DNA of 64,000 nucleotides from a virus (IMGVR_UViG_3300033153_016035:55918-119917); one strand, 5' to 3'; positions 13,992 through 42,717 are shown, counted from the stretch's first letter. Numbers and translations are program-made. Notes: generated by a model from the sequence alone, not told the origin.

Positions 13992-14020
13992 TTTACATAA
14001 AAAGGTAATGATGTTATAAT
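13992..14020 (+). promoter_or_regulatory. sigma70-type promoter for the HTH gene
   Basis: TTTACA-17 nt-TATAAT with an extended -10 TGn. Confidence 0.7.
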
Positions 14021-14052
14021 GCCTTCAGGCCGTTGTGTGGAAGGAGAATGAA

Positions 14053-14289
14053 ATGTACGTTGATTTCAAGGAGGCCGCAAAAGTACTGGGAGTCCATTAC
14101 AATACCATCAAACGATGGACGGATAAATTAAAAATCAAGACACCCTCTGCGCCTAAAAAACTAAAACACGTAACCCGTGAGGTAAAGATGGTGCCCTTTC
14201 GGGAGCTTGTAAGTAAACTTACAGATGCAAAAGTATTACCATTTAGTCAAGTAGAGTCTTCTAATAATATTCCGAGTACAAAGAAGTAA
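14053..14289 (+). CDS. Small MerR/excisionase-type helix-turn-helix DNA-binding protein
   Basis: FKEAAKVLGVHYNTIKRW HTH signature; AAGGAG RBS upstream of ATG 14053. Confidence 0.8.
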   Translation: MYVDFKEAAKVLGVHYNTIKRWTDKLKIKTPSAPKKLKHVTREVKMVPFRELVSKLTDAKVLPFSQVESSNNIPSTKK

Positions 14290-14404
14290 ACAGTTTGTAA
14301 ATTATTTAAAAAACTACCACTACAGTTAAAAATTCTACCCCCACAATGTCAACGAACTTCCCGCTGTAACCCCCGAATTTATTACATTTTATTTAATTTT
14401 TCCC

Positions 14405-14433
14405 TTGCATTTCCCGCATTTTTGTGGTATAAT
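14405..14433 (+). promoter_or_regulatory. Near-consensus sigma70 promoter heading the plus-strand island
   Basis: TTGCAT-17 nt-TATAAT, extended -10 TG, AT-rich upstream region. Confidence 0.8.
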
Positions 14434-14439
14434 ATAGGT

Positions 14440-15391
14440 AGAAAAGGGGAAAGTTCCCCTTCATCTTAGAGATGGATTTCATCCATCTCCCTCCTAGATG
14501 TCCCGCACCTCCGAAAGAGCCGAGTGGGAAACTCAAGTGGGTTTCTTCGGTGGTTGTGGGTGAGACTTTTGTCGAAAGAGCTAGATGCCGCCCTTTAACG
14601 GGGCTACAGCTCATTAGAGGCATCAACCCGCACAAGTCGCGCATACATGCGCGGATCTGGAAGGACTCCCTGCCGTGGTTTAAATGGCACAGGTGAGGGC
14701 TTCCAGGTATCACAGGCTTAAAACAATCAGGAAACTACCAACCACAAGCCACTTTCTGGTTGACCGCTGACCCAAGAGGAACATTCTCCAGCGGTGCTAA
14801 TCCCAGTCCATCGTGACTGGGTGTGTCCCCGAAAGGGGATTCTGACCGGGGCATTTCACCATGCCCCTTGACCCCACAGCTTCCTCCTAACACGAGGAGC
14901 GGGGAAAGGTCTATTTGCGAGAACCCCACGGAGTCATCTGTGGGCCGAAAAGGATATACGACGTTGACCCTTAGGGGTCGGGGATTGGAGAGTCCCCTGT
15001 GAAGTCGTGAAGTGGTCGCGGGGCGCAACCGCCAGTTAACCCAACCCACACTTGGGGGCCGCTGGTTCTGAAAAGAGGTAAGGGACGTTTCGGGGGGAGA
15101 TGGTATGAAAAAAATTGATAAGACAGGTGGTAGCGATTACTGCTCACCCCATAAATTCTAAAGACCTAAGCGTCCACTGCGGACAAGCTGAAGAAAACAA
15201 AGGTAGCCACAGAGATGGCACCAGAAACGAGGTAAGCTTGAAAGTGTTGGCAGCCTGAGGAACTTACCCATCTAAAGTTTAACCCCTGCTTGCAGGAAGA
15301 AGACTTTTAATGGGACTTGGGGTCGAGTGGTAATTACTACCGCCGACAAATACACCCTGCATGGCAATAAACCATGTGGGGTTTTTATTTT
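14440..15391 (+). ncRNA. Candidate large structured non-coding RNA (about 950 nt), family unassigned
   Basis: Bounded by a promoter and a terminator, with no credible ORF. Long-range helices 14483-14511/15075-15103 and 15126-15145/15325-15344, plus many internal hairpins, some with GAAA tetraloops. Confidence 0.65.
15354..15391 (+). terminator. Intrinsic terminator-like hairpin
   Basis: ACCCTGCATGG-caataaa-CCATGTGGGGT followed by TTTTATTTT. Confidence 0.6.
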
Positions 15392-15395
15392 AACA

Positions 15396-15510
15396 AAGAC
15401 CGAGCCCGGTGGCCCGCACTTTTGTGCGGTCATGAATCCTTGCTTTCCCTTGTGGTGGCATAGCGAACCGGAAGTTAAATCTTCTGGGGTTCAACTCCCT
15501 GATTGGTCTT
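15396..15510 (+). ncRNA. Non-canonical tRNA-like element 1
   Basis: Closing stem AAGACCGA/TTGGTCTT, internal arms and T-loop GGTTCAACTCC (15488-15498); no canonical anticodon arm. Confidence 0.4.
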
Positions 15511-15991
15511 CAAAATTCAACAAGTAGTAACGGGATAAGGGTAAACATCAACCTGTTACGTGACCGTGCCCCTGACGGCCTTAGTACCCTGGACCGGGTG
15601 AAAGCCCCAGATACTTACCGGTTTCTCATGGCCTTGAGACGTTATCAGGGTCGGCATTCCGACGGTGGCATAAAGAATGGGAACTTCGCCACCCGCTGGT
15701 TGGGACTTAGATGTCCTTGGAAAAACTACAGGAAGTAATGTTCTTCGTAGCTGTCCTGGGCGTCCTAAAGGGTTTAACGGTTACTTGCACCCAAGTTATC
15801 CCTCGCTTCGGCCTAAAAACATAAAATGTGCTCGCGGTATTGTGGGAGGCACGCTTACCTCAGATTGTTTAACGACGGTCGACGGTGGGTAAGTTTAGGT
15901 TAGAGTCCTAAAATATCTGCACAACGCGGAATAACAAATCCGCAAGCTTGCCCCGAGGAAGCTAAAAAAATTAAATAACAACAATTTTATA

Positions 15992-16045
15992 TGTCGGCGT
16001 TGGTAGAGTGGCTACTACGTAGGTTCAACCCCTAAAACGTCAACA
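15992..16045 (+). ncRNA. Minimal tRNA-like element 2 (D-like and T arms, no anticodon arm)
   Basis: TGTCGGCGTT/AACGTCAACA stem, GGTAG-AGTGG-CTACT arm, TAGG-TTCAACC-CCTA arm. Confidence 0.45.
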
Positions 16046-16069
16046 AAACTTTGTGGGGCTAAGGCCCCG

Positions 16070-16122
16070 GTCCAGTATAATCTGTGTTAGAAAAGAGTTG
16101 AAACTGGACATCGACTAACACA
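16070..16122 (+). other. Predicted H-type RNA pseudoknot
   Basis: GTCCAGT(16070-76) pairs ACTGGAC(16103-09); loop TGTGTTAG(16083-90) pairs CTAACACA(16115-22). Confidence 0.5.
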
Positions 16123-16311
16123 AACTGCTTACCCCATCGGGAAAAGCGAGGTGGGGAGTTCTAACGAACTAATCGCCGTCAACTCCGGCGAGGAAGATGG
16201 GGAAGCGTCAAAATCTTTAAACGATCCTGGTAGGGTAAAACCTACCGGGGTCATCATCTATTCTATTTCGTAACTATCACAGGGGGCCTGAGTGCCCCCG
16301 AGGAGTTTAAA

Positions 16312-16584
16312 ATGAAGACTATAGTATTACAAAGAGTCCCCGATGGGTATCGGGGAGATTTGGACTGTCTAGCGGTGGTAACGCCGCATAAAGAAATTGG
16401 CTGCACCCATAGTGGGCACGGCCACGACTATAAAGTCCACATCGTCATCGACGAAACCGTCGCAGGGACGTTGTTCCGTGAACACGGGAATAATGGGGGT
16501 GGAAAACCTGCCTGTGATACCTTCTATCCAGCGGAAGGTTGGAAGGTTGAGTATGACGATTACGACGACGATGACGACGACTAA
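16312..16584 (+). CDS. Hypothetical protein with an acidic C-terminus
   Basis: GAGGAG RBS, 90 aa, flanked by repeat elements. Confidence 0.75.
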   Translation: MKTIVLQRVPDGYRGDLDCLAVVTPHKEIGCTHSGHGHDYKVHIVIDETVAGTLFREHGNNGGGKPACDTFYPAEGWKVEYDDYDDDDDD

Positions 16585-16677
16585 AATTAACCCCAGGTGG
16601 GCTAGAAGCCCACTTGGGATATCATCTATTCCATTTTTTAACTATTACAGGGGCCTGAGTGCCCCGAGGAGTTTAAA

Positions 16678-16971
16678 ATGAAAAAAGATAATAAAAAAAA
16701 CCAACTCCTGCGCTCCTTCGCGCAGGCGGCCAATTTTCCCTTTGCCGAAGCACGAAAAAGAGCGTATTGGTGGGGAATCCCCCACTACTTCTTGGGGGAA
16801 GAGCCAAACGGTTCCCGGTGGTGGGTAGAACTCGATTTTACAAAAAACGAGTACCGCATCGTCGTCTGGGAAGGGCGGGAGTGGACCAAAGCCGTAAGAA
16901 CCGAAGGCTCGAAGTTGACCAAACGCCTGGTCCGCGTAACCAGGTGTCTAAGAGGCTGGAAACAAAAATAA
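16678..16971 (+). CDS. Hypothetical protein
   Basis: GAGGAG RBS; leader nearly identical to that of the 16312 gene. Confidence 0.75.
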   Translation: MKKDNKKNQLLRSFAQAANFPFAEARKRAYWWGIPHYFLGEEPNGSRWWVELDFTKNEYRIVVWEGREWTKAVRTEGSKLTKRLVRVTRCLRGWKQK

Positions 16972-17014
16972 ACCCAACCCCAGGTAGGCTAGAAACCTGC
17001 TTGGGGTATTATAA

Positions 17015-17251
17015 AACGTGGGTGTTGGAAAGCATCTTTACAAGGTGCCCTCCACCGCCCACCCAGCCGGGCCGGATTAACCCCTATCCCGGTTACTAAA
17101 CGGACTTTGCCTACAGTCCAACAACTAAAGTAGGCGCCTTGCCGAGGACGGTATAACTCCCTTTCGGGCCCACCTGATTAACGCCACCGTGCGAGGGGAA
17201 CGGGTTCAACTCCCGTGGCAACACCAATATGTGGTTTCCAATGACCACGTT
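17015..17251 (+). ncRNA. Structured RNA containing a pseudoknot and tRNA-like element 3 ending in ACCA (17226)
   Basis: Closing helix AACGTGG..TTGGAAA/TTTCCAA..CCACGTT; pseudoknot GGACT/AGTCC with GCCTAC/GTAGGC (17102-17135); T arm ACGGG-TTCAACT-CCCGT followed by GGCAACACCA. Confidence 0.55.
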
Positions 17252-17379
17252 CATGACAGGACACTGTTGACGTACAACTGCCATTTGGCGGCGGGCGTCG
17301 AGTGTCCGTTGCCCGCCAGCAGTGCCATTGCATGTTTAACTCTGGGAGTCGCGACCTTAGAGTTAAAACCCAATTGGAG

Positions 17380-17435
17380 AAAAAGCCCGCAAACACACCC
17401 CAACCCTGGAGTGCGTTTGCGGGCTTTTTTTATTT
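17380..17435 (+). terminator. Intrinsic terminator (potentially bidirectional)
   Basis: AAAAAGCCCGCAAAC...GTTTGCGGGCTTTTTTT. Confidence 0.7.
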
Positions 17436-17484
17436 CAAATTTTTACGTTTGTGGGGTAATTGCCTACAGGCGTAATTATATTTC

Positions 17485-17532
17485 AGCCCGCAATATCCTT
17501 TCTACGAGAGGGGATGTTGCGGGCTTTTTTTT
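17485..17532 (+). terminator. Intrinsic terminator-like hairpin
   Basis: AGCCCGCAATATCC...GGATGTTGCGGGCTTTTTTTT. Confidence 0.65.
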
Positions 17533-17548
17533 AATTTAAGGAGAAATC

Positions 17549-17842
17549 ATGTCTCGAAACAAAAAAAATAATATGACCCAACCCCAACCCCAACCCCAAC
17601 CCCAATTCACTCCCGCCACCCAAATGAACAGTCTCCCGGCACCAGCCGAGGAGATGGTAAGTAGGACCATCGGGGAGTTGATCCAGGAATCAGTCGAAAG
17701 GAACCTGGACTTTTCAGGGTGTATACGGCAGGCCGACAAAGAGCTTGACGTCTCGTACACCCCACCCAAAGATGAGGAGGGGTCGGTGAAAAAAAGGGAG
17801 TTTCAATTGAGGTTCCGCGACAACAAGAGAATCTCAGACTAG
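17549..17842 (+). CDS. Hypothetical protein with a QPQPQPQPQ repeat
   Basis: AAGGAG RBS; tandem CAACCC hexamers. Confidence 0.65.
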   Translation: MSRNKKNNMTQPQPQPQPQFTPATQMNSLPAPAEEMVSRTIGELIQESVERNLDFSGCIRQADKELDVSYTPPKDEEGSVKKREFQLRFRDNKRISD

Positions 17843-17920
17843 CCTATTCCGGGGGTGGCTCCCCCGGCTCCTTACCATGTTTTTTTAAACCCTGTAACTT
17901 TTAAGAAAAGGAGGTCTACC

Positions 17921-18943
17921 ATGATTATCATGCAAGACCAAGTTCAGAATTTTCAGGATATAAACACGTTACATGAGCACGTAGAAGCTCAGGATGTCAG
18001 CGAAAGGATCGGAACGGTAAAGCTCCAAGATATGGAGCTATGGCCGAACTCCCTGCGAGTCAGGGATGAACACTACGCGTTGACCCGGACAGGCGTCAAC
18101 GACGCTCTATCCCTGGCACATTTCCCTCAGGGAGCCTTCATTAAGGTCGAAGAGGAGAAACAAGGCGATATCGACTTGGGGTTGTGTACATACACCAACT
18201 CCTTCTATAACCATGCCTCTTGCAAAAATAAGAGGCGCAAGATAATAACCCGCGCCACCACCGAAAACGAAAAGGAGGCGACTGGCCTTGAAAGGGCTGT
18301 CATCGGCATCCCGAGTGAGCAATACTATTTGTTTTCTCACGCCGAGGCGCTTGATAAAATCAAGGCCCCGGTTTCCACTCTCCAGGTAAAAAGGGCGCGG
18401 GTGACACCGCACTTAATGGAAATATGTGTGGTGGACGACCGCTTCAAAGCCCAAGCGGGCGCGGTTGGAGACATAGTAGAGATTGGGGTTAAAATCCTCA
18501 ACTCACAAACCCGAGCAAGGAAGCTCCAATTTGGAGCCTTCACATGGCGGCTTTGGTGTACAAATGGCTGCTCCGCAGCCAGCGAAGCGTTTTCGTTTGG
18601 ATTTGTCCACCGGCAGGGAATAACGGCCATCAATGGCCAGATAGAGCCAGGCATTAGAGACCTAATTGAGAAGACGGAAGTCTTCACAAAGGGTCTTCCG
18701 CGTCTGGCAGAAATGCCTGCCGACGACAAGTTCATCCGGCGGATCGAGCCTCGGCTCGTCCAAGGGATGAAAACAGCACCGGCGCAACTGTACACCGAGG
18801 GTCTCCGGGAAAACCGGCAAAACCGGTTGGATGTTTGGAACTACGTCACCGAGTACGCACACAAACATACCGGGGGCGACGTCAACAAACAGCAAACCCT
18901 GGAGAACCTTGGGTTCTCCATCCTGGAGATGTCCATAAATTAA
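17921..18943 (+). CDS. DUF932-like phage/plasmid protein
   Basis: GVKILNS...AFTWRLWCTNG signature; AAGGAGG RBS before ATG 17921. Confidence 0.7.
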   Translation: MIIMQDQVQNFQDINTLHEHVEAQDVSERIGTVKLQDMELWPNSLRVRDEHYALTRTGVNDALSLAHFPQGAFIKVEEEKQGDIDLGLCTYTNSFYNHASCKNKRRKIITRATTENEKEATGLERAVIGIPSEQYYLFSHAEALDKIKAPVSTLQVKRARVTPHLMEICVVDDRFKAQAGAVGDIVEIGVKILNSQTRARKLQFGAFTWRLWCTNGCSAASEAFSFGFVHRQGITAINGQIEPGIRDLIEKTEVFTKGLPRLAEMPADDKFIRRIEPRLVQGMKTAPAQLYTEGLRENRQNRLDVWNYVTEYAHKHTGGDVNKQQTLENLGFSILEMSIN

Positions 18944-19019
18944 CAACCCAGCCCCGACAGGATAAGCTCCTGTCGGGGTTTTTATTTCCCCAAACACTAA
19001 CTCTTTGAAAGGAGACTAT

Positions 19020-19385
19020 ATGGGAAATTTCTTTTACTGGTCCAATTCGGACCTGAAGAACTTAGAAGCGGCCGCACACCGCGATGGGTACCGGCTGCCC
19101 ACAAATTTTTACATGAGGCGGTCGGAAGTAACGGCGGACCTTTACCAACAGGAAGAGGTTCGTGATGAGGCGGTAAAGGCCGCCGCGACGGAGTGGCAGA
19201 AGCTCCGTAAGGGGATTGCCTGGGTCAAGCTCGATGGAGACGACCAGGAGGTCGGTCCCCGATCGGCTGACTTTTACAAGGAAGCCCTCCCCCAGCAGTT
19301 GTTTGACTTGCTGGGAAGTTTTGACCGGAAGGCCGCTTTGGTGGCGGCTATCGAGTTTATACGCACGTATAGACCCGCAGAATAA
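19020..19385 (+). CDS. Hypothetical protein
   Basis: AAGGAG RBS before ATG 19020. Confidence 0.75.
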   Translation: MGNFFYWSNSDLKNLEAAAHRDGYRLPTNFYMRRSEVTADLYQQEEVRDEAVKAAATEWQKLRKGIAWVKLDGDDQEVGPRSADFYKEALPQQLFDLLGSFDRKAALVAAIEFIRTYRPAE

Positions 19386-19460
19386 ACTGTGTCTACAGGG
19401 GGCTAAATGCCTTCTGTAGACTTTATGCTTTTTATTACATTAACTTTTTAAGGAAATATT

Positions 19461-19652
19461 ATGAAAAAGTACGACCTTGTATGCCCCCATTGCCACGAAC
19501 CGGAGGTGGTTCACCTCCCGGCACATGCGCCCAATGAGCCCCACTGTACGGAATGTGGGGAGGATGTGGATCTTGACGAGGTCCACACATTTATCAATGG
19601 GTGGACCGATTATCTGGCTGACAGAAAAGCGTTTTTGGAGGCAAAAAAATGA
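19461..19652 (+). CDS. Small Zn-ribbon protein
   Basis: CPHC...CTEC; AAGGA RBS. Confidence 0.7.
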   Translation: MKKYDLVCPHCHEPEVVHLPAHAPNEPHCTECGEDVDLDEVHTFINGWTDYLADRKAFLEAKK

Positions 19653-20089
19653 ATCTGATTGAATTCTTCCGAGGAGACTACACCCTAAAAGTGGAGGTTC
19701 TCCTGACGGACCCTGATAATAAAAGGGTCTGCCTGACTATCGTCCAAACTGCCCCTGACACAAGGAAGGCGTTGAGGACCAATCAGTTCTACCTCAAACT
19801 GTCGGAGGCGCGGATACTGTTTCAGGACTTTTTGTCCTGTGAATTTTGGGTCGCCAACCGGCGATATCCAAAAAGACAGTTCCGGCGGATCCGAAAGTCC
19901 AGCCGGTACCGGGATGTCATTATCCAGCCTAAGGATAATGACCTTTCCTTATCTATTATAGATGGGGAGAAGGAAAATGTCCTTCGGTTTCAGTTGACCT
20001 CGTTTGAAGCCGCCGAGATGGCGGACACGGTTTTAGACTATCTGGACAAAAAGCGCCTCGCCTGGGCGATAAAGCAGGCGATAAAATAG
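19649..20089 (+). CDS. Hypothetical protein
   Basis: ATGA overlap with the upstream gene; GGAGG RBS. Confidence 0.7.
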   Translation: MNLIEFFRGDYTLKVEVLLTDPDNKRVCLTIVQTAPDTRKALRTNQFYLKLSEARILFQDFLSCEFWVANRRYPKRQFRRIRKSSRYRDVIIQPKDNDLSLSIIDGEKENVLRFQLTSFEAAEMADTVLDYLDKKRLAWAIKQAIK

Positions 20090-20182
20090 GGACTACCGGG
20101 GGACACAGTTCCCCGGTAGCCGTCATGGCCCGTAACATTTCTTTTCGGCGGCCTTTCGGTCGCTATTTAAAAAGGAGAATTT

Positions 20183-20872
20183 ATGTATATTCATTTTTCC
20201 GAACCGGGCAAAATGCCCTGCCATGCCTGGTCGCTTCCGACGGCAATGTGCCAATCGGGACAAAAGTACCGGTTACAGGGCGACCTGACCGGTAAACCAT
20301 TTGCCTGTCGTGTGTGTTATGCACACCTTGGGCCTACGTCCTGGAATAAAAACCAGGGATATTTAACAAAAAACTGGGAGGCGTATGCCGCAAATCCAGA
20401 TGGCTGGGTGATAGAGATTGCCGACGCTATCTGGAATCGACTAAACGCCTTGTATTTCCGGTGGAACCACAGTGGCGATATCCAAAGTGCAATCCACTTA
20501 GGACACCTAGTCGGCGTGGCCGAGCTTTGCCCCAAAACTTTTTTCTGGCTACCAACGTCCGAATTTGCCTTCGTGTCTCGATATCTCCGGGACGGTGGCG
20601 ACATCCCCAAAAATTTATGTGTACGGGTATCGGCCCCACTCATAGACGGGAAACCCCGCATCTTGCGGAGGCCGCACCCCCAAGTGGCATACAGTAGAGT
20701 AGTCTACCATGAGGTAGATGAAACCTTGTGCCCTGCTCACAGACAGGAGGGGGTTTGCGGCAAATGCCGCAGATGTTGGGATATTAACGAGAGACTAGTA
20801 TCCTATCCACTTAAGGTGGGGTACACCTACTGGCCGTTACTAACAGCCAATAGGCTAGGTCTAATAAAATAA
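20183..20872 (+). CDS. Gp88-like Cys-rich phage protein (mycobacteriophage gene 88 family)
   Basis: KMP..WSLP..C, CxxCYA, YFRWNHSGD, FWLPT, NLCVRVS and CPA..Q.G.CGxCRxCW motifs. Confidence 0.75.
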   Translation: MYIHFSEPGKMPCHAWSLPTAMCQSGQKYRLQGDLTGKPFACRVCYAHLGPTSWNKNQGYLTKNWEAYAANPDGWVIEIADAIWNRLNALYFRWNHSGDIQSAIHLGHLVGVAELCPKTFFWLPTSEFAFVSRYLRDGGDIPKNLCVRVSAPLIDGKPRILRRPHPQVAYSRVVYHEVDETLCPAHRQEGVCGKCRRCWDINERLVSYPLKVGYTYWPLLTANRLGLIK

Positions 20873-20953
20873 AACCGGGCCGGGGAGGATAGAACCTCCT
20901 CGGTTCTTTATCTTTTACTTTTAATTTTACTTAACAAAGGAAAGGAGATTTGT

Positions 20954-21505
20954 ATGAAAGACAAATCTCATCTTACCACCACCTATGACGCCTACAACAC
21001 CGCCCGGATCCTCGATGACTACGTCAATGGATCCGGCGGCTTCACCGAAGTTTTTGCTGAGAGTTTCAGCTTGGAAGAAGCGCGGGTTGTGTGTAAATTT
21101 TTCTACCACTCCCTCATCTACTATGGAGGAAAAGAGGTAGGCATTGACGGGCGGAACGAATACTACGTAGGGGTCTGCAAAAAAATCAGACCAAAACATC
21201 ACGCCATGCAAGTGGCAGACTGCGCAACGTACAACGGGAACAAGGAAGAAATACCGTACCACCCTGAAGAGTACGCCGTGTCCAGATTTCTGGTACGGTG
21301 GTTGAAGACTGCTTCGATGTCTGAACAGAAGAAATTCTTTCACTTCTTCAGGGAGGACACGCACAACATGCTCCAGTCCTATTTTGTAGAACTGGCCATC
21401 AAAATGTGTCTTTACTGGCACGCTAGGCTCCCAGAACTAAAACCGCTAATAAAAAGTATTGTAGATGCAGGTCACTACATAAATACCCGCGATTTACACT
21501 ACTAA
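20954..21505 (+). CDS. Hypothetical protein
   Basis: AAGGAG RBS; bounded by hairpin elements. Confidence 0.75.
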   Translation: MKDKSHLTTTYDAYNTARILDDYVNGSGGFTEVFAESFSLEEARVVCKFFYHSLIYYGGKEVGIDGRNEYYVGVCKKIRPKHHAMQVADCATYNGNKEEIPYHPEEYAVSRFLVRWLKTASMSEQKKFFHFFREDTHNMLQSYFVELAIKMCLYWHARLPELKPLIKSIVDAGHYINTRDLHY

Positions 21506-21577
21506 AAAGAACCCGGCGCTGGCCATAAACCGGCGTCGGGTATCATAACCTATTTCGTTTCTTTTTAGGAGAAATCC

Positions 21578-21826
21578 ATGAGATGTACGAAAGAACAACT
21601 GGACCAATGGGTCCAGATACTAACCAAACTTGTCCCACCACCCAAATGGTGTCGGTGGGAATACCGAAATGAGTATGGTCATGGGATTTTCCCCGTAATC
21701 ATAAAAAATGGTGCCGTTTACGCCAACAAGGTGCTCGGCGGGATGGTCCACAATACCAAACCAGAGTTACTGTCGCACATCAAGTTTACGGTTAGTGTTA
21801 TTCAAGCCCTGAAGGGGGGAGAGTAA
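21578..21826 (+). CDS. Hypothetical protein
   Basis: AGGAG RBS. Confidence 0.7.
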   Translation: MRCTKEQLDQWVQILTKLVPPPKWCRWEYRNEYGHGIFPVIIKNGAVYANKVLGGMVHNTKPELLSHIKFTVSVIQALKGGE

Positions 21827-22101
21827 TGTATTTCAAATTTAAACTAAACGTAGTCCGGGAGGCCCTATCCTCTGAGACTATTACCATCAATCTCCGGGGG
21901 CCTAAAGAGGCACCGGTATTTTCAAATGGACTTCTGTCCGAAATTCTTGAGGCCAGTGAGGTTGAGACCTCGGTTTCTGTGTCCTCCAAGGACATCAGAG
22001 ATCTACTAAAAACGCATGGGCGGTACAAAAAGTATATGTACTGCTTGGTCCAGAAGGATTACCTTCTAGTGGGATTTTCCCCACTCAAAAAAAGAAAATA
22101 A
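21826..22101 (+). CDS. Hypothetical protein
   Basis: TAATG coupling with the upstream gene. Confidence 0.7.
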   Translation: MYFKFKLNVVREALSSETITINLRGPKEAPVFSNGLLSEILEASEVETSVSVSSKDIRDLLKTHGRYKKYMYCLVQKDYLLVGFSPLKKRK

Positions 22102-22173
22102 ACCTGAGCCTGGGTGGAGGTAGAACTTCCCCGGGCTATTATCTTTAATTTCATAACTTTTTAGGAGACTACT

Positions 22174-22683
22174 ATGGATTTTTTAAAGCTTATCAGAGAA
22201 GAAGAGTACCAGACAGTAGTGCGCCAACTGGCGCATGAAGACGGGATCGAAGTGGTCCTATCTATTCCCGGAGTATGGGAGCTGGTGGCGGAGTTTTATA
22301 ACAACGCCGCCATTGAGTTGTGGCAGAAGGAACTCCCCTTTACGTGGGAGGAGGATGGTCACGAGGTGGTATTGGAACTCCTGGAGACGGGCACGAAAGT
22401 CGTGCTACGCCAGTCCGACCGCCCGTGGTCCAGCCCGGGGTTTTCCCGCCTGGAGTACGAAGTCTACCAAACGGGGTTTACCCCCATTTTTGAGAATGAC
22501 GACTTCGCAGTTCCGACGGGGGCGGGTTTAACCCTCAGGTCGACTTTAAGCCTACTGCGCCACCTCACAGACCCACATAAGCTGGGTCGGGAATTTGACC
22601 TCAACCAGCTCGACTGGTTAGAGACTTATGGGGGGGAGATCGGAGGATTTGCTGCCGATTGGCGGCAAAGGCTCGACATATAA
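22174..22683 (+). CDS. Hypothetical protein
   Basis: AGGAG RBS; bounded by hairpin elements. Confidence 0.75.
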   Translation: MDFLKLIREEEYQTVVRQLAHEDGIEVVLSIPGVWELVAEFYNNAAIELWQKELPFTWEEDGHEVVLELLETGTKVVLRQSDRPWSSPGFSRLEYEVYQTGFTPIFENDDFAVPTGAGLTLRSTLSLLRHLTDPHKLGREFDLNQLDWLETYGGEIGGFAADWRQRLDI

Positions 22684-22744
22684 AACTAAACCCGGGCGGG
22701 ATGACTCCTGTCCGGGTTACTATTTCTATTTTAAGGAGAAAAAT

Positions 22745-22951
22745 ATGAGCTACAAACACCCCGAAGGGTGGATCAAGCGTGGGGAGAAACACCACTTTTT
22801 CGTGGACGGCGTCTCCCTGTGTCGCCATTTCTACCAATTCACGTACGATAACCCGTCCGAACACGACGGGCTGTACAACTTAATGGACTGCGCCGAGTGC
22901 CAGTCCAAACACAAGCATTTAATCTCTGAAAGGAGATTTAAAAATGGATAA
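22745..22951 (+). CDS. Small Cys/His protein
   Basis: AAGGAG RBS before ATG 22745; HFF...SLC...CAEC. Confidence 0.7.
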   Translation: MSYKHPEGWIKRGEKHHFFVDGVSLCRHFYQFTYDNPSEHDGLYNLMDCAECQSKHKHLISERRFKNG

Positions 22952-23120
22952 AAACTGTGAGGACTGTGGTACCCCCATTATACGAGGGGGGATGGTTGTC
23001 GTCGATGGCGCCGTGAAGGCTGGCGACGTTTTACTTTGCAGCGAATGCAAAAACAAACAAAAAATTCGTACGCATAACGCCCTCACCCATATGTACGGGC
23101 AGATGGCGATGGACGACTAA
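22944..23120 (+). CDS. Small Zn-finger protein (58 aa, not in the ORF track)
   Basis: AAGGAG RBS; MDKNCEDCG...LLCSECK. Confidence 0.7.
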   Translation: MDKNCEDCGTPIIRGGMVVVDGAVKAGDVLLCSECKNKQKIRTHNALTHMYGQMAMDD

Positions 23121-23195
23121 ACTGTGCCCGGGTAAGGATAAAACCTTGCCTGGGTTTTATTTTTTTATTCCCTAGTTTACTTTAAGGAGACTTCT

Positions 23196-23504
23196 ATGGA
23201 TAAAAACTACACCGACCCCAAAAAGTGTTGGCCCCCAAAAATGGACAAAGACCTCGATCTGATTTTTCGGATCGGGGACACGATGTCAGACTTTTTGGGG
23301 AGGCACGGGGTGGCTGGCCAACTTGATGGCCCATACCAAGCGTGGGCACACCCCAATTACCACAGGGAGACCCCCGAGACAATTAGGGGGGACAGCTCCA
23401 TCGGAGATGGGGGGTTAAATGACAAAGTCCTTAGGTCAGCCACTGCATTTGTGGCGTACAGCTTGTCTATGACGAGTGCCCCGACTGTCGAAGTATCTGT
23501 TTGA
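23196..23504 (+). CDS. Hypothetical protein
   Basis: AAGGAG RBS. Confidence 0.65.
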   Translation: MDKNYTDPKKCWPPKMDKDLDLIFRIGDTMSDFLGRHGVAGQLDGPYQAWAHPNYHRETPETIRGDSSIGDGGLNDKVLRSATAFVAYSLSMTSAPTVEVSV

Positions 23505-23710
23505 CATGTTACGCGTGTGGTGGGGTATGGAAGCCCAAGACCCCGCCGGAAAGTCGGGAATGTCCAGAAACCTGCATCCACTGCGGGACTTCCTGCTGCC
23601 CTAATTGCGGTGGGGAGATATATCGCGTTGAGGAGAGGGATGGAGTAGAGGAGCAGTACAGAAAAGCGTGTTCATACTGCTCCTGGCGACACTGCGGGGG
23701 GTGCATTTAA
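23501..23710 (+). CDS. Small Cys-rich protein
   Basis: Multiple CxxC motifs; TTGA overlap. Confidence 0.55.
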   Translation: MTCYACGGVWKPKTPPESRECPETCIHCGTSCCPNCGGEIYRVEERDGVEEQYRKACSYCSWRHCGGCI

Positions 23711-23786
23711 AATAAGGCCAGAGGGGGTTGAAAGCCCCTCAGGTCATCATCTACTTCATAACTTTTTCAAGAAGAAAGGGTATGCT

Positions 23787-24005
23787 ATGTATAGATCAAC
23801 AAGCCAAGTTATCTGCAAAAACCGAAAAACAGGCGAAGAAAAAACATATAGCGGATTAGAACCATGTGATGCTCTGATCGTCATTTACGCGCAGAGCATC
23901 GGAGACTTTAATTCGGCGCACTACGGTAAATACTGTGCATACATACGCCGGGACGGGGTTTACAAATATGAACTTGGGGACTGGTATGTTGCCACTCCAA
24001 CCTAA
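23787..24005 (+). CDS. Hypothetical protein
   Basis: 72 aa, bounded by hairpin elements. Confidence 0.7.
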   Translation: MYRSTSQVICKNRKTGEEKTYSGLEPCDALIVIYAQSIGDFNSAHYGKYCAYIRRDGVYKYELGDWYVATPT

Positions 24006-24082
24006 ATAAAAACCAGATCTGAGGGGGCTTACCCCTCCTCAGGTCATCATCTACTTTATTTCTTTATTAAGGAGAATTCTAT

Positions 24083-24775
24083 ATGAGAAAAATAAGCGAG
24101 ACACCGAGGGACTGTTATGAGTCCTTCTTTGCGACGTCGTCGCCCATTGTGACCATCCGTCAGGTTTTAGGGATACCTAACCCTGATGAGTTTGGTATTG
24201 TAGGTGATGACGGGGCTTACAAAATATGGTTTGAGGGAACCCCTATCCAAAATTATAGGGGGGAAATTGTATCGGGAAGCTGGCCGCAGTTCAACCCCGT
24301 GGAAAAAGCACGTCAGGAGAGCCTACCCCACCTTGGAAAAGTGTGGGTTATCTGGAGTCATGATCTCGAACTCCTCGGGGAGTGGAAACAGGCCCTAAAA
24401 AAGGGTGATCCAAATTACCGTGAAGCGGTAACGGAGGATATCGTCATCATGTGGCGGTGGTTTGAAATAGACAACCCGTTTCTTTTCATCCATGACCTGC
24501 ACCTGCCAAGGTCGATACCCCTACTAGACTGTGCCCGAAATGACGAGTTTCTCAGGTGGGCATACACCCTCAAATTTGAGGATATGACCCCCCACGAAGA
24601 AAAACACGCCATGAAGCACTGGATGCCCTCCGGTAAATGCAACCAGCACCTTGATGGCAAATTTCGCGTCAGAAAGAACCGACGCGGACTTTGGAAATGG
24701 TCGTGCGGTTTCTGCGGGGAACGGGGCACGGAGAAGTTTAAAGCACCGAGTGAGTGCCCCCTTTGTAAAAAGTAA
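24083..24775 (+). CDS. Hypothetical protein with a C-terminal Zn ribbon
   Basis: AAGGAG RBS; WSCGFCG...CPLC. Confidence 0.75.
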   Translation: MRKISETPRDCYESFFATSSPIVTIRQVLGIPNPDEFGIVGDDGAYKIWFEGTPIQNYRGEIVSGSWPQFNPVEKARQESLPHLGKVWVIWSHDLELLGEWKQALKKGDPNYREAVTEDIVIMWRWFEIDNPFLFIHDLHLPRSIPLLDCARNDEFLRWAYTLKFEDMTPHEEKHAMKHWMPSGKCNQHLDGKFRVRKNRRGLWKWSCGFCGERGTEKFKAPSECPLCKK

Positions 24776-24855
24776 ACCCAGGGCCAGGAAGGATTGGAAC
24801 ACTTTCTGGCCATTATCTATTTATTTACTTCATAACTTTTACAAAGGAATGGTAA

Positions 24856-24930
24856 ATGACATATAGACCAACAAGCAGAGTCGTCTGTAAAAACCGAACT
24901 TTTTTAAAGGGGTGGCCATGTGTAAAATGA
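24856..24930 (+). pseudogene. Truncated paralog of the 23787 gene
   Basis: MTYRPTSRVVCKNR versus MYRSTSQVICKNR; shared upstream ACTTCATAACTTTT; stops after 24 codons. Confidence 0.55.
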
Positions 24931-25071
24931 CTTTTGGGTACGTGGAATCATTCACCCATTTTAATGTCTGCGCAGATTGGACCCCCGACTGCGCGGAGAT
25001 CAAAGACAAAGAGAAGTGTCAAGGGTATGAGCCCGCCACTGGGCCATGCCCTTACTTATAAGGAGCGACCT

Positions 25072-25341
25072 ATGTTCAGAATTGTGGCAACACAATGCTT
25101 CTGCGACCTTTCCGTTTTCACCATAAACGGAGAGACCGCAGCCTATGAAGACTTCGGCGACAAGTATGACGCCGATGAAGAAAACGCACCCGACTATGGG
25201 TGTGGTAATATGAAATTTTTTCCCAAACCCGCAACCCAAGCGGTACTGGATAAGTACCGCACCACCACCGACGAGTACAACGAGATTTGCGCTGCGCTAG
25301 AAGCGGCGCTATCGTTTGGTGAATGCGAGTGGTGCTCCTGA
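25072..25341 (+). CDS. Hypothetical protein
   Basis: AAGGAG RBS before ATG 25072; YGCG and CxWC motifs. Confidence 0.75.
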   Translation: MFRIVATQCFCDLSVFTINGETAAYEDFGDKYDADEENAPDYGCGNMKFFPKPATQAVLDKYRTTTDEYNEICAALEAALSFGECEWCS

Positions 25342-25350
25342 CAAACCTAT

Positions 25351-25399
25351 GCCCCCCGACTGTGACCAACTAGGTCATAGTCGGGGGCTTTTTTTATTT
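25351..25399 (+). terminator. Terminator ending the plus-strand island at a convergent gene junction
   Basis: GCCCCCCGACTGTGACC-aacta-GGTCATAGTCGGGGGC followed by a T run. Confidence 0.8.
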
Positions 25400-25651
25400 G
25401 CCTTCGTTCAAACGATCCTGCCTGGCCCCGCGATAAAACACTGCAAACTCCTTTTTTCGTAGTGGGACTACCGTCAAGTCGGTGGCATTTACCGACGCCA
25501 ACCTCTCGGTCAGCTCTACCATCGCCTTATCCAATTCTTCATAATCATCTTTCCACTCCAGAAGGATGTGGGCCATCCCCCAGGCTGCTTTGCCGTCCTC
25601 GGTCCGCGTCGTAGTACCCGAAACTTTCATATGGTTTTCCTCTCTGCTCAA
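25394..25651 (-). CDS. Hypothetical protein
   Basis: ORF ending at the terminator; start probably ATG 25630. Confidence 0.55.
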   Translation of the reverse strand: MSREENHMKVSGTTTRTEDGKAAWGMAHILLEWKDDYEELDKAMVELTERLASVNATDLTVVPLRKKEFAVFYRGARQDRLNEGK

Positions 25652-28987: not shown

Positions 28988-30201
28988 AAGAAAGCCTCCA
29001 CATCTGGATTTTTTGCCTCAAACATTTTCTTGAAGATCATGAAACACAAGTATGTGTCGTATTTCGCATCATGAAGGTTATGCCTCGCGGTTGGGATCTT
29101 ATAATACTCAGCCGCCTCCTGCAATTTCGGCCATTTGTAACCCTTGTGTCTGGTACCACTAGCTGTTATTTTCACAATATCCGTATTAGAAAGCATCGTA
29201 CAAAATTGCTCCCCGTCCCCCACCTCGAAAGGCAGGAACTGGTAGTCAAACTTAATGTTGTGCGCAATAAACCGATCGGCCGTCTCAGCGAACGCCACAA
29301 AATCTGTATCCTCGTCAAAATGCGCAAACCACCCATCCTCATGCCCTTTACGTTTTTCTATAAGAACATCCCTGAAAAGACCATTTACCTTAGCCGCCGC
29401 TGTGTTGATTCTGGTACGGGGCAGATAGAACCGCTCAAAGTCCCCGGCAAAGATAAACTTCCCGTCTTGAAGTACCACCTTCAAAGCCGTTACAGCTAAA
29501 ACACAGGATGACTTTTTTATGCCATTTGTCTCGAAGTCAAAGAAAACCAACTCCAGAGTGGGCTTTTGTTCAAGTGGCGGCGGAGACAAGTCTTTTATAA
29601 CTTCCGTCGCCGGTACTACGGCCTTTTGGGTTTGCGCCACTACCGGGGGTTTGGGTGAGGGGATTACCGGAGCAATTGGCATTTGAAAATCCGCCGGGTC
29701 TAAGGGTTGGGCTTCTGGCGGTATGGGGGTTTGCCAACTAGCAGCCATTTTTTTCTCCTGATCTATCTTAGCCGCCAAATCACTGAGTTCTGCCGACACT
29801 GGGTCTGGGATTTGTGACATGAAATAATCCACCGCCGCCTGCAAGGACTCCTCCTCCGCCATTTTAGTTATAAATAAAAGCGGGGCTACAGTGACTTCCT
29901 TGTACTGGAAGGCGCCGGTGTCCCGGTGCATTGATATTTGATTTTTCAAAATGCCCCGGTGCGCCAGGGCGTCTAAAAATTCATCCATTGAAAACTGATT
30001 CATATATTCCTCCGGTTTTATGTGGGTTAAACAACATTTAACATCCGCTTCCAAGACACCGGTCATGTGAAAGATCGGTGTCGGGAATAACTCTCCGCGA
30101 TCGTAGCAAAAGGCATTGTCGTGCCTTCGGTAGGTCATGCGTGAGGGCGGCAAACCGTGACCAGTCAACACCTCCACAAGTTTATGATAATAAGTCTCCA
30201 C
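28978..30201 (-). CDS. DEDDh 3'-5' exonuclease (DnaQ-like) with an N-terminal extension and Pro-rich linker
   Basis: FFDFETNG (ExoI), AHNIKFD (ExoII), KWPKLQE and HDAKYD (ExoIII). Confidence 0.85.
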   Translation of the reverse strand: METYYHKLVEVLTGHGLPPSRMTYRRHDNAFCYDRGELFPTPIFHMTGVLEADVKCCLTHIKPEEYMNQFSMDEFLDALAHRGILKNQISMHRDTGAFQYKEVTVAPLLFITKMAEEESLQAAVDYFMSQIPDPVSAELSDLAAKIDQEKKMAASWQTPIPPEAQPLDPADFQMPIAPVIPSPKPPVVAQTQKAVVPATEVIKDLSPPPLEQKPTLELVFFDFETNGIKKSSCVLAVTALKVVLQDGKFIFAGDFERFYLPRTRINTAAAKVNGLFRDVLIEKRKGHEDGWFAHFDEDTDFVAFAETADRFIAHNIKFDYQFLPFEVGDGEQFCTMLSNTDIVKITASGTRHKGYKWPKLQEAAEYYKIPTARHNLHDAKYDTYLCFMIFKKMFEAKNPDVEAFLWW

Positions 30202-30730
30202 TGAGTTTTATCTCCGTTTTTGTCCCGCCAGCGTCTGAAAACACTACTGCATTCCACCCTACAATTTGCCCCTGTAAGAAAGGGCTCCCCACATGAGGCG
30301 CTGCGGCGCCCTTCTTCATATACGCTAGAGTGAGGTGCGGTTTATAATGGGGGTGAGTGGTTGTAACTTTAAGATGCTCGGTCAGCAACTGATTTAGTTC
30401 TGTAAAGTCCGGTGAGAGCACCTCCACCAAGAGTATGTCCTCCTCATCGTTTTCAAAAACAGATGTGGAGCCGAATGAGGCGGTGAGGCGCGATTTTAGC
30501 TGAACAATCTTTGCTACCTCTTTAGGCTCCTTTGTGTGGATTCCGTACTTTATGGTGATATGGGGCTCGTCCTCTGCCTTTAGAATCTGGTCTGGGATAA
30601 GGTTGGCTGAGACCCAATCTTTGATTTTAGCCACCAGCTCCGGGGAGCATACAACCCCAACATAGCCAAAATCATAACCCTCGTCAAGACGACCGTGGAT
30701 TATATTATAAATACCCGTTTGTCTGTCCAT
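30182..30730 (-). CDS. 2H phosphoesterase, Acb1/T4 gp57B-like (candidate anti-CBASS nuclease)
   Basis: Paired HxT motifs PHITIKYG and YKPHLTLAY; short leader ending LDEG. Confidence 0.75.
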   Translation of the reverse strand: MDRQTGIYNIIHGRLDEGYDFGYVGVVCSPELVAKIKDWVSANLIPDQILKAEDEPHITIKYGIHTKEPKEVAKIVQLKSRLTASFGSTSVFENDEEDILLVEVLSPDFTELNQLLTEHLKVTTTHPHYKPHLTLAYMKKGAAAPHVGSPFLQGQIVGWNAVVFSDAGGTKTEIKLSGDLLS

Positions 30731-30779: not shown

Positions 30780-32012
30780 TTATTTAAACTCTGCTAAATA
30801 GTCTTCTACGGAGATAATTCCTCGCATAAATTTTTGATAAATGTTTCCAGGGGGTTTTTGGTAGGGAAGCAATGATCCATCTTGACCCGGAACTATAGAT
30901 GGTAAATCAGAAATTGCATCAACAACTGTAATTGCCGATTTTTGGAAGTTAAAAAGATTGCTCTCTGTGTTCATAGTTGTGATAGGGTCAGGCGGCTGAA
31001 TTTTTTCAGATGATTTATTTTGGCCAACCAGAAAAACTCTTTTTCTTCTTTGCGGTATTGCAAAGTTTTCTGTGTTTAAAACCCACCCGGTAATCGACGA
31101 CATAACACTATTGAAAGATTCTTTAACTTCTTCAAAAACTCTCCCCTTCTCCATATTGAGAAGTCCAGCTACATTTTCAAAAACAAAACCATCGGGGTTC
31201 ACCTCATTAATAAATTCCTTGTAGTTAATAAATAGTAAATTTCTTTTGTCCTTCATGGTTCGTTTATTGCCCGCTGTTGAAAATCCTTGGCAAGGAGGAC
31301 CGCCAAGTACCCAAAAAGGCAATTCCTTATGTTTTTCTTTTGCTTTTATGGCAATATCAACAAGAATTGAAAAGTTTTTTTCATCCGTGATACTTCCTAC
31401 TATCACATCTTGATGTACGTTGGCTGCGTAAGTTTCTAGGAAACGAGATTCAATATCATTGGCTATAATAGGTATCCAACCAGCCCATTTAAAACCCAAG
31501 CCCATGCCCCCTGCACCTGAAAAAAGATCTACAAAAACTCCAGGATTACCTATCGTGTTTATCACTTGCTTAGCAATTTGAAACGTTAACAATGGAGGAA
31601 CCGCATTTCCTATTTGGTTGTTTATTGCAGTTTGTGAGCCGAAAAATTTAAAATTATCGGGGAAAGATTGTAACCTTGCAGCTTCTCTTTGGGACAAAAC
31701 GCGGTCTTGATTATAGTGAATATGACACCCATTTCCTGGACGATTAAAATATGTGTTTATGGTGTATGAGGGCTTATGGGGCAGAAGTCTTCCATAATAA
31801 GTAGAACGACTACCTTTCCCTTGGGCATAGCTTTCTCGAATTTGTGCGATTCTCTTAGACGGGACATGTTCCGGGATATTCTTCCAATTGCCACCAGGTG
31901 GAACAGATTTCACAATTTGCATATCTAGTTCGCTCAAACGCGAACTGAAATGATTGTGAATTTGATGAGGTTCGCTCTTCGTTATATTATAAATACCTCT
32001 TTGTCTATCCAT
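30780..32012 (-). CDS. Circularly permuted DNA cytosine-C5 methyltransferase
   Basis: Motif IX (REAARLQSFPD) and X (QIGNAVPP) precede I (DLFSGAGG), IV (GGPPCQGFS), VI (ENV) and VIII (PQRRKR). Confidence 0.9.
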   Translation of the reverse strand: MDRQRGIYNITKSEPHQIHNHFSSRLSELDMQIVKSVPPGGNWKNIPEHVPSKRIAQIRESYAQGKGSRSTYYGRLLPHKPSYTINTYFNRPGNGCHIHYNQDRVLSQREAARLQSFPDNFKFFGSQTAINNQIGNAVPPLLTFQIAKQVINTIGNPGVFVDLFSGAGGMGLGFKWAGWIPIIANDIESRFLETYAANVHQDVIVGSITDEKNFSILVDIAIKAKEKHKELPFWVLGGPPCQGFSTAGNKRTMKDKRNLLFINYKEFINEVNPDGFVFENVAGLLNMEKGRVFEEVKESFNSVMSSITGWVLNTENFAIPQRRKRVFLVGQNKSSEKIQPPDPITTMNTESNLFNFQKSAITVVDAISDLPSIVPGQDGSLLPYQKPPGNIYQKFMRGIISVEDYLAEFK

Positions 32013-39435: not shown

Positions 39436-39861
39436 TCAGACACCAGTTTTCTCCTTGATATTCTCAACCCTAACATAACCCGCTGCTTGATATGTTATCT
39501 TCTGATTTACTGTCTTTCGAGATATTATGATAGTGGAACCACACCCGGGACAAGTCACCAGCGTCTCAATTTTTTCTGGAATGTCCGGGAATATTGGGGG
39601 ATTTGTTGTCGGTATGATTTTTTTACAAACTGGACACCCTACTCCCTCCGCATCCCCAGATTCTTCCAGACAATGTACAAGATGTGTGCGATTTGTCTTT
39701 ATCTTCCTCTTTTTATGCTCCGGTATTGGGATGAACCTAAATGCGAGTCCGTCACCCCCCACTTTTAAATTTATTTCAGGGGGATTTTCCATTTGTTCAT
39801 CAGATAATTTGACTTTTATTAAAAGGGTATTATCCTCAATTTTATATGTGGGAATTGTCAT
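39436..39861 (-). CDS. Hypothetical Zn-ribbon protein
   Basis: CPVC and CPGC. Confidence 0.6.
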   Translation of the reverse strand: MTIPTYKIEDNTLLIKVKLSDEQMENPPEINLKVGGDGLAFRFIPIPEHKKRKIKTNRTHLVHCLEESGDAEGVGCPVCKKIIPTTNPPIFPDIPEKIETLVTCPGCGSTIIISRKTVNQKITYQAAGYVRVENIKEKTGV

Positions 39862-40384
39862 ATCTTTTTTCCTAAATGTATGTTTTCAAACTTGCGGTCG
39901 TGGTACAGGTTTTTTGGCTGCGCCTCTGCGAGCCCCTATGATAGGGGTTTATGTGGTAATTTGCTTGCCTACAAATAAGTTCTAGTATCAAACAGGGGTT
40001 TTCATATTTTTGGCGTTTTGGACCATACCACGTATAGAGTAGAGAAAAATCCCAAAAATGAAAAACCCCGAAGATTTCAAAAATACTTTGTACTCGAACT
40101 TGTTTGGCATTTTTAGGGTAAATTTGCATCATTAGGGTTATGGGGGCTACGTGGCTAGTTTCTCTATTTACCGTTTTTGTCATTTTAACTACCTCTTCGT
40201 CCCTTACTTAGTACTGACCGCATTTTGCGGGGATCATGGTTTTTGGTGGAAAATGGCCTTTTTTTGAGGGCTTTTTTGGTCGTTTTTCCACTGGTTTTTT
40301 GGGGGTGGAGTCGGTGTTGGGTGCTGTGCTTAGCTCTTGTTAGGGGTCGACTTTGATTTTATGTTTCGTGTAACTTGTCCGCAA

Positions 40385-40789
40385 CTACCCATTTATGTCC
40401 TCTAAAATTGCATTAAAAAATTCCTCAACTTTGTGGCAGTCATTTAATGTTAAACTTCGTTCGTCATCACTGATAATATATTTGGGATTACCTAACATTA
40501 TTTTAAATAGAGGAGCCCTTTCCGCCCGCGCTATAAAAGCTATTTTTATAACCTGTTTAGGGGCTGTTACCTCCAATAATATGATGCTGTGTTCTTGTAT
40601 ATATCCCCAAACTACCCCCAGTATAGTCCCATTCAGAATTTCTTCTATTGGTAGAAGCGCACAATCTTTTAGGTGGAAGATCACCCAGTCAATCTTCTCC
40701 TCTTCTATCACCTCAATTGTCTTTGGTATACTATATTCCTTAAGCAACTCTACTGGGATTATTTCCCCCTCTAAGTCCTCTAAACTCAT
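40385..40789 (-). CDS. Hypothetical protein
   Basis: AAGGAGG RBS. Confidence 0.65.
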   Translation of the reverse strand: MSLEDLEGEIIPVELLKEYSIPKTIEVIEEEKIDWVIFHLKDCALLPIEEILNGTILGVVWGYIQEHSIILLEVTAPKQVIKIAFIARAERAPLFKIMLGNPKYIISDDERSLTLNDCHKVEEFFNAILEDING

Positions 40790-41022
40790 CTGCTTGTCCT
40801 CCTTAGTGGGTTTACCTGGGGTAACTGTTCTGGGGTAACTGGTTTACTAATTTACCGGTTTCTGGGTGCTTCGTGTAATAGATTTTTTGGTTTCATGGCA
40901 CCGCTTTTTTGGTTTTTGGATTTCGGATTTGAAAATGGGATTTGGTATTTCTTGCTTCTAAGCGCCCCTAGTGCCCGGAGGGGGTGGGTCAAATAAAGCT
41001 TGGGACGGGCCCCGCAAACCCC

Positions 41023-42716: not shown

Positions 42717-42717
42717 T

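Follow-up and report, generated by a model that had tools for sequence, protein, structure and literature searches.

In the early operon of phage T7, promoters stand at one end, RNase III sites lie between the genes and one final terminator closes the unit, each T7-type RNase III site comprising some two helical turns of duplex RNA, as a rule interrupted by an internal loop. Other signals with which an intergenic hairpin can be compared are integron attC sites, which measure 57-141 nt, and lambda-type nut sites, where a boxA motif lies beside a short boxB hairpin. T4-like phages carry cassettes with PeSL and PmSL elements (Arbiol et al. 2010, PMC2839356; Comeau et al. 2014, PMC4122927); in the latter paper, a sigma70-like early promoter (-35, N17, -10) is placed between the PeSL stem-loop and the Shine-Dalgarno (SD) sequence, units of a Mot-box and TATTAT adjoin stem-loops, and homologous exchange within modules is proposed for PeSLs. 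The subject of our study is an array of hairpins in IMGVR_UViG_3300033153_016035:55918-119917, the final 64 kb of a virus record that totals 119,917 nt and is about 55% complete (CheckV); this whole stretch of 64,000 nt is called the window, and positions are counted from its first letter. Nearly all genes lie on the minus strand, and the sole plus-strand block, from about 13992 to 25400, carries 16 hairpins of the same kind, all on the plus strand, between 15354 and 24811. They are single-stranded, plus-sense RNA structures whose pairing is under selection.

Sense-strand RNA hairpins in the plus-strand block

All 16 elements fold as a single hairpin, with z-scores between -2.5 and -6.7 (200 shuffles each); no shuffle folded equally well for 12 of them, and 2-4 of the 200 did so for the remaining four. 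The hairpins are G+C-rich, measure 29-31 nt in every copy and combine a stem of 10-14 pairs with a loop of 3-10 nt, at folding energies of -16 to -24 kcal/mol. One strong hairpin closes every unit of one or two genes, its stem beginning 0-10 nt (median 5) past the stop codon. A hairpin of -15 kcal/mol or lower lies within 60 nt 3' of the stop in 14 of 20 block genes as opposed to 6 of 111 minus-strand genes, with median best post-stop energies of -20.7 and -7.0, respectively; the six block genes that do not have one are the upstream partners in overlapping pairs. By these measures the hairpins listed in an initial annotation of this DNA are real, lie where it had placed them and exceed chance by far.

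Several lines of evidence identify the molecule that folds. The stems contain 30 G.T juxtapositions versus 4 A.C (binomial p 6e-06), a tally in which one copy, h10, was entered one base off, inflating the class of other juxtapositions, and the plus-strand fold is more stable than that of the opposite strand in 16 of 16 cases. In the model-fitted alignment, 77.8% of the cells assigned to stems are paired, compared with 59.9 +/- 2.4 after shuffling (reached by 0 of 500 shuffles), double-sided changes occur at 10 of 12 pairs (reached by 11 of 500), and the covariation score is 0.552 versus 0.223 in shuffled alignments (0 of 500). Pairing falls to 35-48% when the partner is slid by 2-3 columns, whereas after a slide of +1 it is still 70%, odd-looped and even-looped copies being offset from each other by one column; owing to this offset the pairing percentages are underestimates, for which model-based realignment gave no cure. 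As the copies are paralogues in one genome, the covariation reflects maintained pairing rather than independent events. Taken together, the excess of G.T, the greater plus-strand stability and the maintained pairing mean that the sense-strand RNA folds. Two claims of the initial annotation, namely that G-T mismatches mark a single-stranded plus-strand structure and that stems diverge while pairing is kept, are borne out by these results.

The copies have more in common than their shape. A MAFFT alignment of 15 of them is nearly gap-free, with gaps just at the row ends, so that the hairpin is of fixed length and the tail always sits in the same place. Within these 15 copies the sole invariant columns are A at +4 and T at +5 past the stem; at least 90% of copies have T at +2, and +3 is either C or T, giving the tail consensus N-T-Y-A-T. 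The tail AT(C/T)ATCT proposed earlier is found in 6 of 16 copies, but h9 has TTTATCT and the other tails differ; in five copies (h0, h6, h7, h9 and h13) the tail is TTTAT and continues T-rich. TARAA is common to many loops, the 5' flank is A-rich and mostly opens with a TAA stop, and the 3' flank is T-rich. Further downstream, a T-rich stretch, often with TAACT, is followed by a strong SD, which matches over at least 5 nt in 16 of 20 block genes, and the spacers from stem to ATG measure 26-61 nt. The exact motif TAACTTTT has 11 matches in the window on both strands, five of them in block leaders, and the whole TAACT(T)...AGGAG leader presumably resembles that of T7 gene 10. A second small hairpin, GGGGGCC TGAGT GCCCCC, lies directly 5' of the SD of the first two genes (16279-16300 and 16646-16666) and is present in both copies of a duplicated leader.

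The family is restricted to the block. A descriptor requiring a stem of at least 10 pairs followed by N-T-Y-A-T fits 14 of 143 hairpins on the plus strand, of which 12 lie in the block, 10 of these between genes, and 3 of 185 on the minus strand. A covariance model (R1), a check put forward in the initial annotation, was built from 15 copies and recovered these 15, all in the block, but no additional copy in the whole 119,917-nt record at E <= 1; hx escapes it at this threshold, and with filters off it added, in the window, the reverse strands of two copies only, at E of about 0.6. R1 found no copy in Rhodothermus phage RM378, in a Flavobacterium phage or in a 5-kb viral contig, a null that says little for the two phages because their portal identity is just 23-24%. 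A scan of viral contigs for the tail motif gave 16 loci, which we take as chance because none has an upstream hairpin, and a search among findings on other genomes for look-alike stretches showed none.

The members are spread over the block as follows, all on the plus strand. Inside the non-coding leader, h0 (15354..15387; z -2.79) is an 11-bp hairpin with a TTTAT tail that the terminator scan also regards as terminator-like, and the leader is closed by h1 (16223..16257; z -6.50), with 12 bp and an ATCAT tail. Next come h2 (16590..16625; ATCAT tail; z -4.95), after the open reading frame (ORF) 16312-16584, and h3 (16977..17012; ATTAT tail; z -4.03), after ORF 16678-16971. Between two strong terminators lies the family-like hx (17444..17479; z -6.04), with 12 bp and an ATTAT tail, while the short 7-bp GC hairpin h5 (17849..17867) after ORF 17549-17842 stands outside the family. 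Stems of 13 bp with TTTAT tails characterise h6 (18950..18985; z -6.69), behind ORF 17921-18943, and h7 (19391..19426; z -6.35), behind ORF 19020-19385. The ORF pair 19461-20089 is closed by h8 (20090..20126; GTCAT tail; z -4.15), the GP88-like ORF 20183-20872 by h9 (20877..20911; 12 bp, TTTAT tail; z -3.60) and ORF 20954-21505 by h10 (21511..21546; 12 bp, ATCAT tail; z -4.58). Further along, h11 (22107..22142; ATTAT tail; z -2.82) follows the ORF pair 21578-22101, h12 (22689..22723; 13 bp, ACTAT tail; z -5.29) follows ORF 22174-22683, and h13 (23126..23160; 12 bp, TTTAT tail; z -5.20) follows the ORF pair 22745-23120. The last three copies are h14 (23716..23750; ATCAT tail; z -3.16) after the ORF pair 23196-23710, h15 (24016..24050; 12 bp, ATCAT tail; z -4.04) after ORF 23787-24005 and h16 (24782..24816; 10 bp, ATTAT tail; z -2.53) after ORF 24083-24775.

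Kinship of the modules and the units they border

Hairpin, tail and leader recur as a module among orphan genes (as judged by homology and family searches), in agreement with the modular early-type array proposed at the outset. Mean identity between modules is 47%, with flanks and loops shared, and six pairs are reciprocal best matches, three of which are neighbours flanking single units: h2/h3 (66% identity), h7/h8 and h14/h15 (73-74%). Repeat families in the block comprise D4, D6, D8 and D9. Repeats D8 and D9 cover the 3' arm of h1 and h2 plus a leader of about 75 nt, 79-94% identical in the two places, and the proteins behind these leaders have no evident similarity, judged by reading the translations alone. 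Repeat D6 (plus strand, 24837..24898; 73% over 62 nt) is a second copy of the leader belonging to the gene at 23787, together with the opening codons of that gene, and ends in a short truncated frame, one breakpoint thus lying within a gene and not at a hairpin. Over 24837-24930, this truncated duplicate of the gene start is fused to unrelated sequence, a recombination scar in the array. The evidence is circumstantial, but it suggests that the modules may have spread by local duplication and homologous recombination.

It is a different matter whether the hairpins themselves are sites at which DNA is exchanged. Sites of an attC-like or REP-like kind, acted on by a recombinase that inserts and excises cassettes, would account for the presence of one hairpin per one- or two-gene unit, for similar modules on either side of single genes (as in h2/h3 and h14/h15), for the same leader before two seemingly unrelated genes and for the orphan status of the block genes. 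Yet no tyrosine or serine recombinase, integrase, HUH/Y1 nuclease or RNase III was found by 141 Pfam queries or PHROG scans of the ORFs, in a record about 55% complete and with the C-terminal half of a 1886-aa ORF outside the scan. Nor do the arms carry conserved core sites, the copies sharing none apart from N-T-Y-A-T; in addition, it is the sense strand that folds better in every copy, 29-31 nt is well under attC size, and the D6 breakpoint falls inside a gene. We therefore regard DNA-level recombination sites as highly improbable, the least credible of the explanations considered. Of the interpretation offered in the initial annotation, RNA structures in a repeated early-type array thus stand, whereas a dedicated cassette-recombination system has no support in the ORFs scanned, and the recombinase or endoribonuclease that was to be sought in the rest of the genome was found in none of them.

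Genes are not the only units that the element borders, since h0, h1, h3 and hx adjoin non-coding ones. The first is a leader of about 1.8 kb (14440..16222, plus strand) with many G+C-rich stems and no convincing ORF, which h0 divides and at whose end h1 stands. The second is a gene-free slot (17010..17384, plus strand) that folds with a z-score of -4.11 on the plus strand versus -1.05 on the minus strand, so that here, as had been claimed, structured RNA occupies the place of a gene; the slot matched no Rfam family and no tRNA. More generally, Rfam gave no hit at the gathering score, its matches being at chance level (E of about 0.3 or worse), and ARAGORN reported no tRNA or tmRNA. Motifs resembling the tRNA T-arm, GGTTCAAC(T/C)CC, occur in the ORF-free stretches at 15485-15501, 16015-16030 and 17211-17240; the third is followed by ...CACCA, and neither ARAGORN nor Rfam makes a call there. 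The gene-free slot also contains, at 17066-17098, a degenerate look-alike of h12 with 75% identity over 32 nt, including a TTACTA tail (repeat D7).

The array belongs to a contractile-tailed virus with T4-like portal, sheath and baseplate proteins, and family scans of the record recognised a family A DNA polymerase, a DnaB-like helicase, a primase and a RecA-like protein, but no phage RNA polymerase. The first plus-strand gene (14053..14289) encodes a small helix-turn-helix protein (HTH_17 E 9.9e-05, below the Pfam cut-off). Relatives are few: the block has no megablast match in a set of 50,697 phage records, a search of 5.8 billion proteins with two proteins of 340 aa and 1076 aa returned no homologue beyond the queries, and scans of viral contigs with single proteins turned up no relatives. 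For the portal, there are eight relatives at 44-71% identity, whose alignment recovered one viral contig of 5,119 nt and none among metagenome or genome contigs, and the best cultured matches reach 23-24%. To judge from these comparisons, the phage appears to be very isolated, in a lineage with no cultured relative. Elsewhere in the window lie a 2'-5' RNA ligase or Acb1-like protein (30182-30730), a polynucleotide kinase 3'-phosphatase-like protein (63374-64000) and DNA methyltransferases of the C5 and N6/N4 types (30780-32012 and 47172-48545), and minus-strand ORFs are widely spaced at 39477-43670 and 45762-47171.

Proposed transcription of the block and role of the hairpins

Promoters are found at the head of the block. 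The sole strong plus-strand site in the promoter scan is P1 (13992..14020), a sigma70-type TTTACA-17-TATAAT with TG before the -10 and 11 of 12 matches. A second plus-strand promoter, P2 (14405..14433; TTGCAT-17-TATAAT with TGG before the -10), was read by eye and had been missed by the scan because its -35 matches at just 3 of 6 positions. Promoter-like sites show no excess in the scanned stretch (14 versus 11.5 +/- 3.1 expected), and the 26-61-nt spacers hold no sigma70-type promoter beyond a 9/12 match at 19434, and there the -10 runs into the start codon. The minus-strand operons elsewhere have plain TTGACA-type promoters (TTGACA-N17-TAnnnT), which points to a host polymerase of the ordinary kind. 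A near-consensus TTGACA-N17-TAAGAT is also present on the minus strand within the ORF gap 41490-42296.

These promoters bear on the idea that every hairpin, together with a -10-like yATyAT, is a terminator-promoter unit used by a modified host polymerase, as in the PmSL of phage nt-1, with a transcription start per cassette. The last stem base and the tail do read TATCAT, TATTAT, TACTAT, CATCAT or CATTAT in 10 of 16 copies, which amounts to 4-5 of 6 matches to TATAAT, and hx would set such a unit just 5' of ORF 17549, behind a strong terminator; a precedent exists in the Mot-box and TATTAT units beside stem-loops (PMC4122927). However, the remaining six copies do not have A at the second hexamer position, and on reading the copies we found no -35 box, TG extension or shared upstream box, the stem ending in GG at -15/-14. 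Family scans recognised no MotA- or AsiA-like activator, the other promoters of this phage follow the plain TTGACA pattern, and the bias of G.T over A.C indicates RNA and not duplex DNA. A start in each cassette therefore seems to us very unlikely, though less so than recombination sites.

Terminators, in turn, are found within the block as well as at its end. Two strong canonical ones follow each other on the plus strand, at 17380..17435 (a long stem and a run of seven T; -31.8 kcal/mol) and at 17485..17533 (a 19-bp stem and a run of eight T, 23 nt before the ATG at 17549), and a third (25351..25396, plus strand; a run of seven T, -30.1 kcal/mol) closes the block facing convergent minus-strand genes. 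A score of the d'Aubenton-Carafa type gave +17 to +68 for these three and +28.6 to +47.2 for h6, h7, h9 and h13; h2 was marginal at +4.1, nine others fell between -1.3 and -20.2, and the values of h0 and hx are distorted by a fold that extends into the tail.

The explanation that we favour, with slightly better than even confidence, is that the hairpins are leaky terminators or 3'-protective stem-loops fused to a U-rich leader with TAACT and SD, and that they were spread by local duplication. Host RNA polymerase would transcribe the whole block as one long early unit from the two head promoters, and the hairpins would act as graded, mostly weak to moderate intrinsic terminators that also cap 3' ends and protect the upstream cistron. 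Their T-rich tail would merge into the U-rich, TAACT-containing leader with its strong SD, allowing each cistron to be translated independently, and the whole module, consisting of stop codon, 30-nt hairpin, NTYAT, leader and SD, would owe its spread within the block to local duplication combined with recombination. Read-through or antitermination would carry polymerase past 17380-17533 and past the five or six copies with a usable U-tract. With just about 5 nt between stop codon and stem, the footprint of a ribosome that is terminating should keep the 5' arm open, so that read-through may be favoured while translation keeps pace.

Several observations weigh against this explanation. By the T-tract rule of the terminator scan (at least five T in eight), 7 of 16 family hairpins pass and 9 fail. 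The initial annotation held that most copies have AT(C/T)ATCT rather than a U-tract, but the five TTTAT copies carry a usable U-tract. The greater likeness of neighbouring modules is a trend only (permutation p 0.083). An invariant A at +4 is unexpected for a plain U-tract, a size of 29-31 nt is tighter than terminators need, and the fixed size and invariant AT are without explanation if the elements are plain terminators; hx, between two strong terminators, would be an extra one with no obvious use. These three features, the A at +4, the size and the position of hx, keep a role in specific recognition alive. There is also a difficulty of supply: with no promoter inside the block, the two strong terminators at 17380-17533 together with five or six good members of the family would starve the distal genes unless read-through were helped, and such a succession of about seven would silence them if no antitermination took place. 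The series thus implies read-through or an antitermination step, or else a promoter type not recognisable here. Family scans found no recognisable antiterminator, and the boxA-like motif GCTCTTWA has three matches in the window (4.1 expected by chance) and none in the block.

Recognition of this kind could be provided by a protein or endoribonuclease, of host or phage origin, that reads the 30-nt hairpin with its UYAU tail and either cuts a polycistronic RNA into mRNA and structured-RNA units or loads an antitermination factor. Such processing or binding sites would explain why the length stays fixed in all 16 copies despite the divergence of the stems, why AT at +4/+5 and, nearly so, T at +2 are conserved, why TARAA recurs in many loops, and why the element bounds non-coding units too. 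Common descent of duplicated modules, however, can also yield a fixed length and a shared tail, and a classical bacterial RNase III site, with its two or so helical turns, needs longer stems than these. No significant nuclease or RNA-binding family was detected in the block or elsewhere in the scanned record, and a FinO lead failed to firm up. On balance, we consider processing or binding sites unlikely. A narrower form of the idea, which we hold to be more doubtful still, takes shape and tail as a signal for one dedicated factor, be it an RNA-binding antiterminator or an endoribonuclease of the ruler type. This factor would let a promoter-poor early transcript of 11 kb pass about 19 terminator-like hairpins, two strong ones in tandem, and would also cleave it into mRNAs and large structured RNAs; if true, this would be a kind of punctuation as yet undescribed in phages.

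FinO-domain proteins bind terminator hairpins, and one candidate, the ORF at 21826-22101 (91 aa), was considered as a ProQ/FinO protein. Its Pfam match was sub-threshold (E 0.0038), RocC matched the same residues at E of about 1, the structure atlas gave other folds, at less than 0.9, and the profile search returned repetitive, low-complexity giant proteins only; the candidate was dropped.

Relation to described punctuation systems

Returning to leaky terminators or protective stem-loops as the preferred explanation, the array can be set beside the systems outlined at the start, among which T7 RNase III sites, PeSLs and attC sites had been named as analogues that the elements do not match exactly. 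We come to the same result, as the elements depart from each of the three on a key feature. In transcription logic, the closest system would be the T7 early operon, since the block likewise has promoters at its head only, intercistronic hairpins and a strong end terminator. It differs in that its stems, of 10-14 bp with no internal loop and with unpaired flanks, have about half the length of an RNase III site, and in that two strong terminators lie inside it. Integron attC sites, which go with an integron integrase, attI and Pc nearby, share with the family one imperfect palindrome per promoter-less cassette and divergent arms, but here no integrase was found in the scanned ORFs, there are no inverse core sites, the sense and not the bottom strand folds, and the elements are smaller. 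A lambda-type nut site would bring with it a boxA, of which the block has no GCTCTTWA-like example.

Intrinsic terminators, at which RNA is released 7-9 nt past the stem, and 3' stabiliser hairpins (REP-type and T4 intercistronic ones) resemble the family in having a G+C-rich hairpin after the stop and a T-rich sense tail; they differ from it in the poor U-tracts of 9 of 16 copies, the invariant A at +4, the fixed length and the kinship among copies. In layout and probable evolution, PeSLs are the closest. In PeSL cassettes, stem-loop, A+T-rich stretch, SD and start codon are repeated between small, variable myovirus genes, stem sequences vary among copies, similar copies flank single genes, and the elements are located where close relatives differ by indels or replacements. 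The present block likewise has a stem-loop at the 5' side (16 hairpins) and, on the 3' side, an SD with a start codon (SD match in 16 of 20 genes), and its duplicated leaders and modules are what duplication or exchange within modules, as proposed for PeSLs, would leave behind. The sigma70-like promoter of PeSLs is, however, absent from the 26-61-nt spacers, and because this promoter defines PeSLs we do not file the elements among them.

The hairpins form a real and well-defined element family, which is most likely a variant of the punctuation already known from the intergenic regions of phages rather than a cassette system of a new type. Its invariant AT and fixed size may point to a tunable set of terminators or to a new rule of RNA recognition. 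If our explanation is true, a promoter-less module of stem-loop and leader has been copied among orphan genes and equally among non-coding RNAs, and a graded read-through or antitermination step would operate in a lineage that lacks any cultured relative. The block would then represent a third layout of early genes, beside the RNase III sites of T7 and the terminator-promoter cassettes of T4-like phages.

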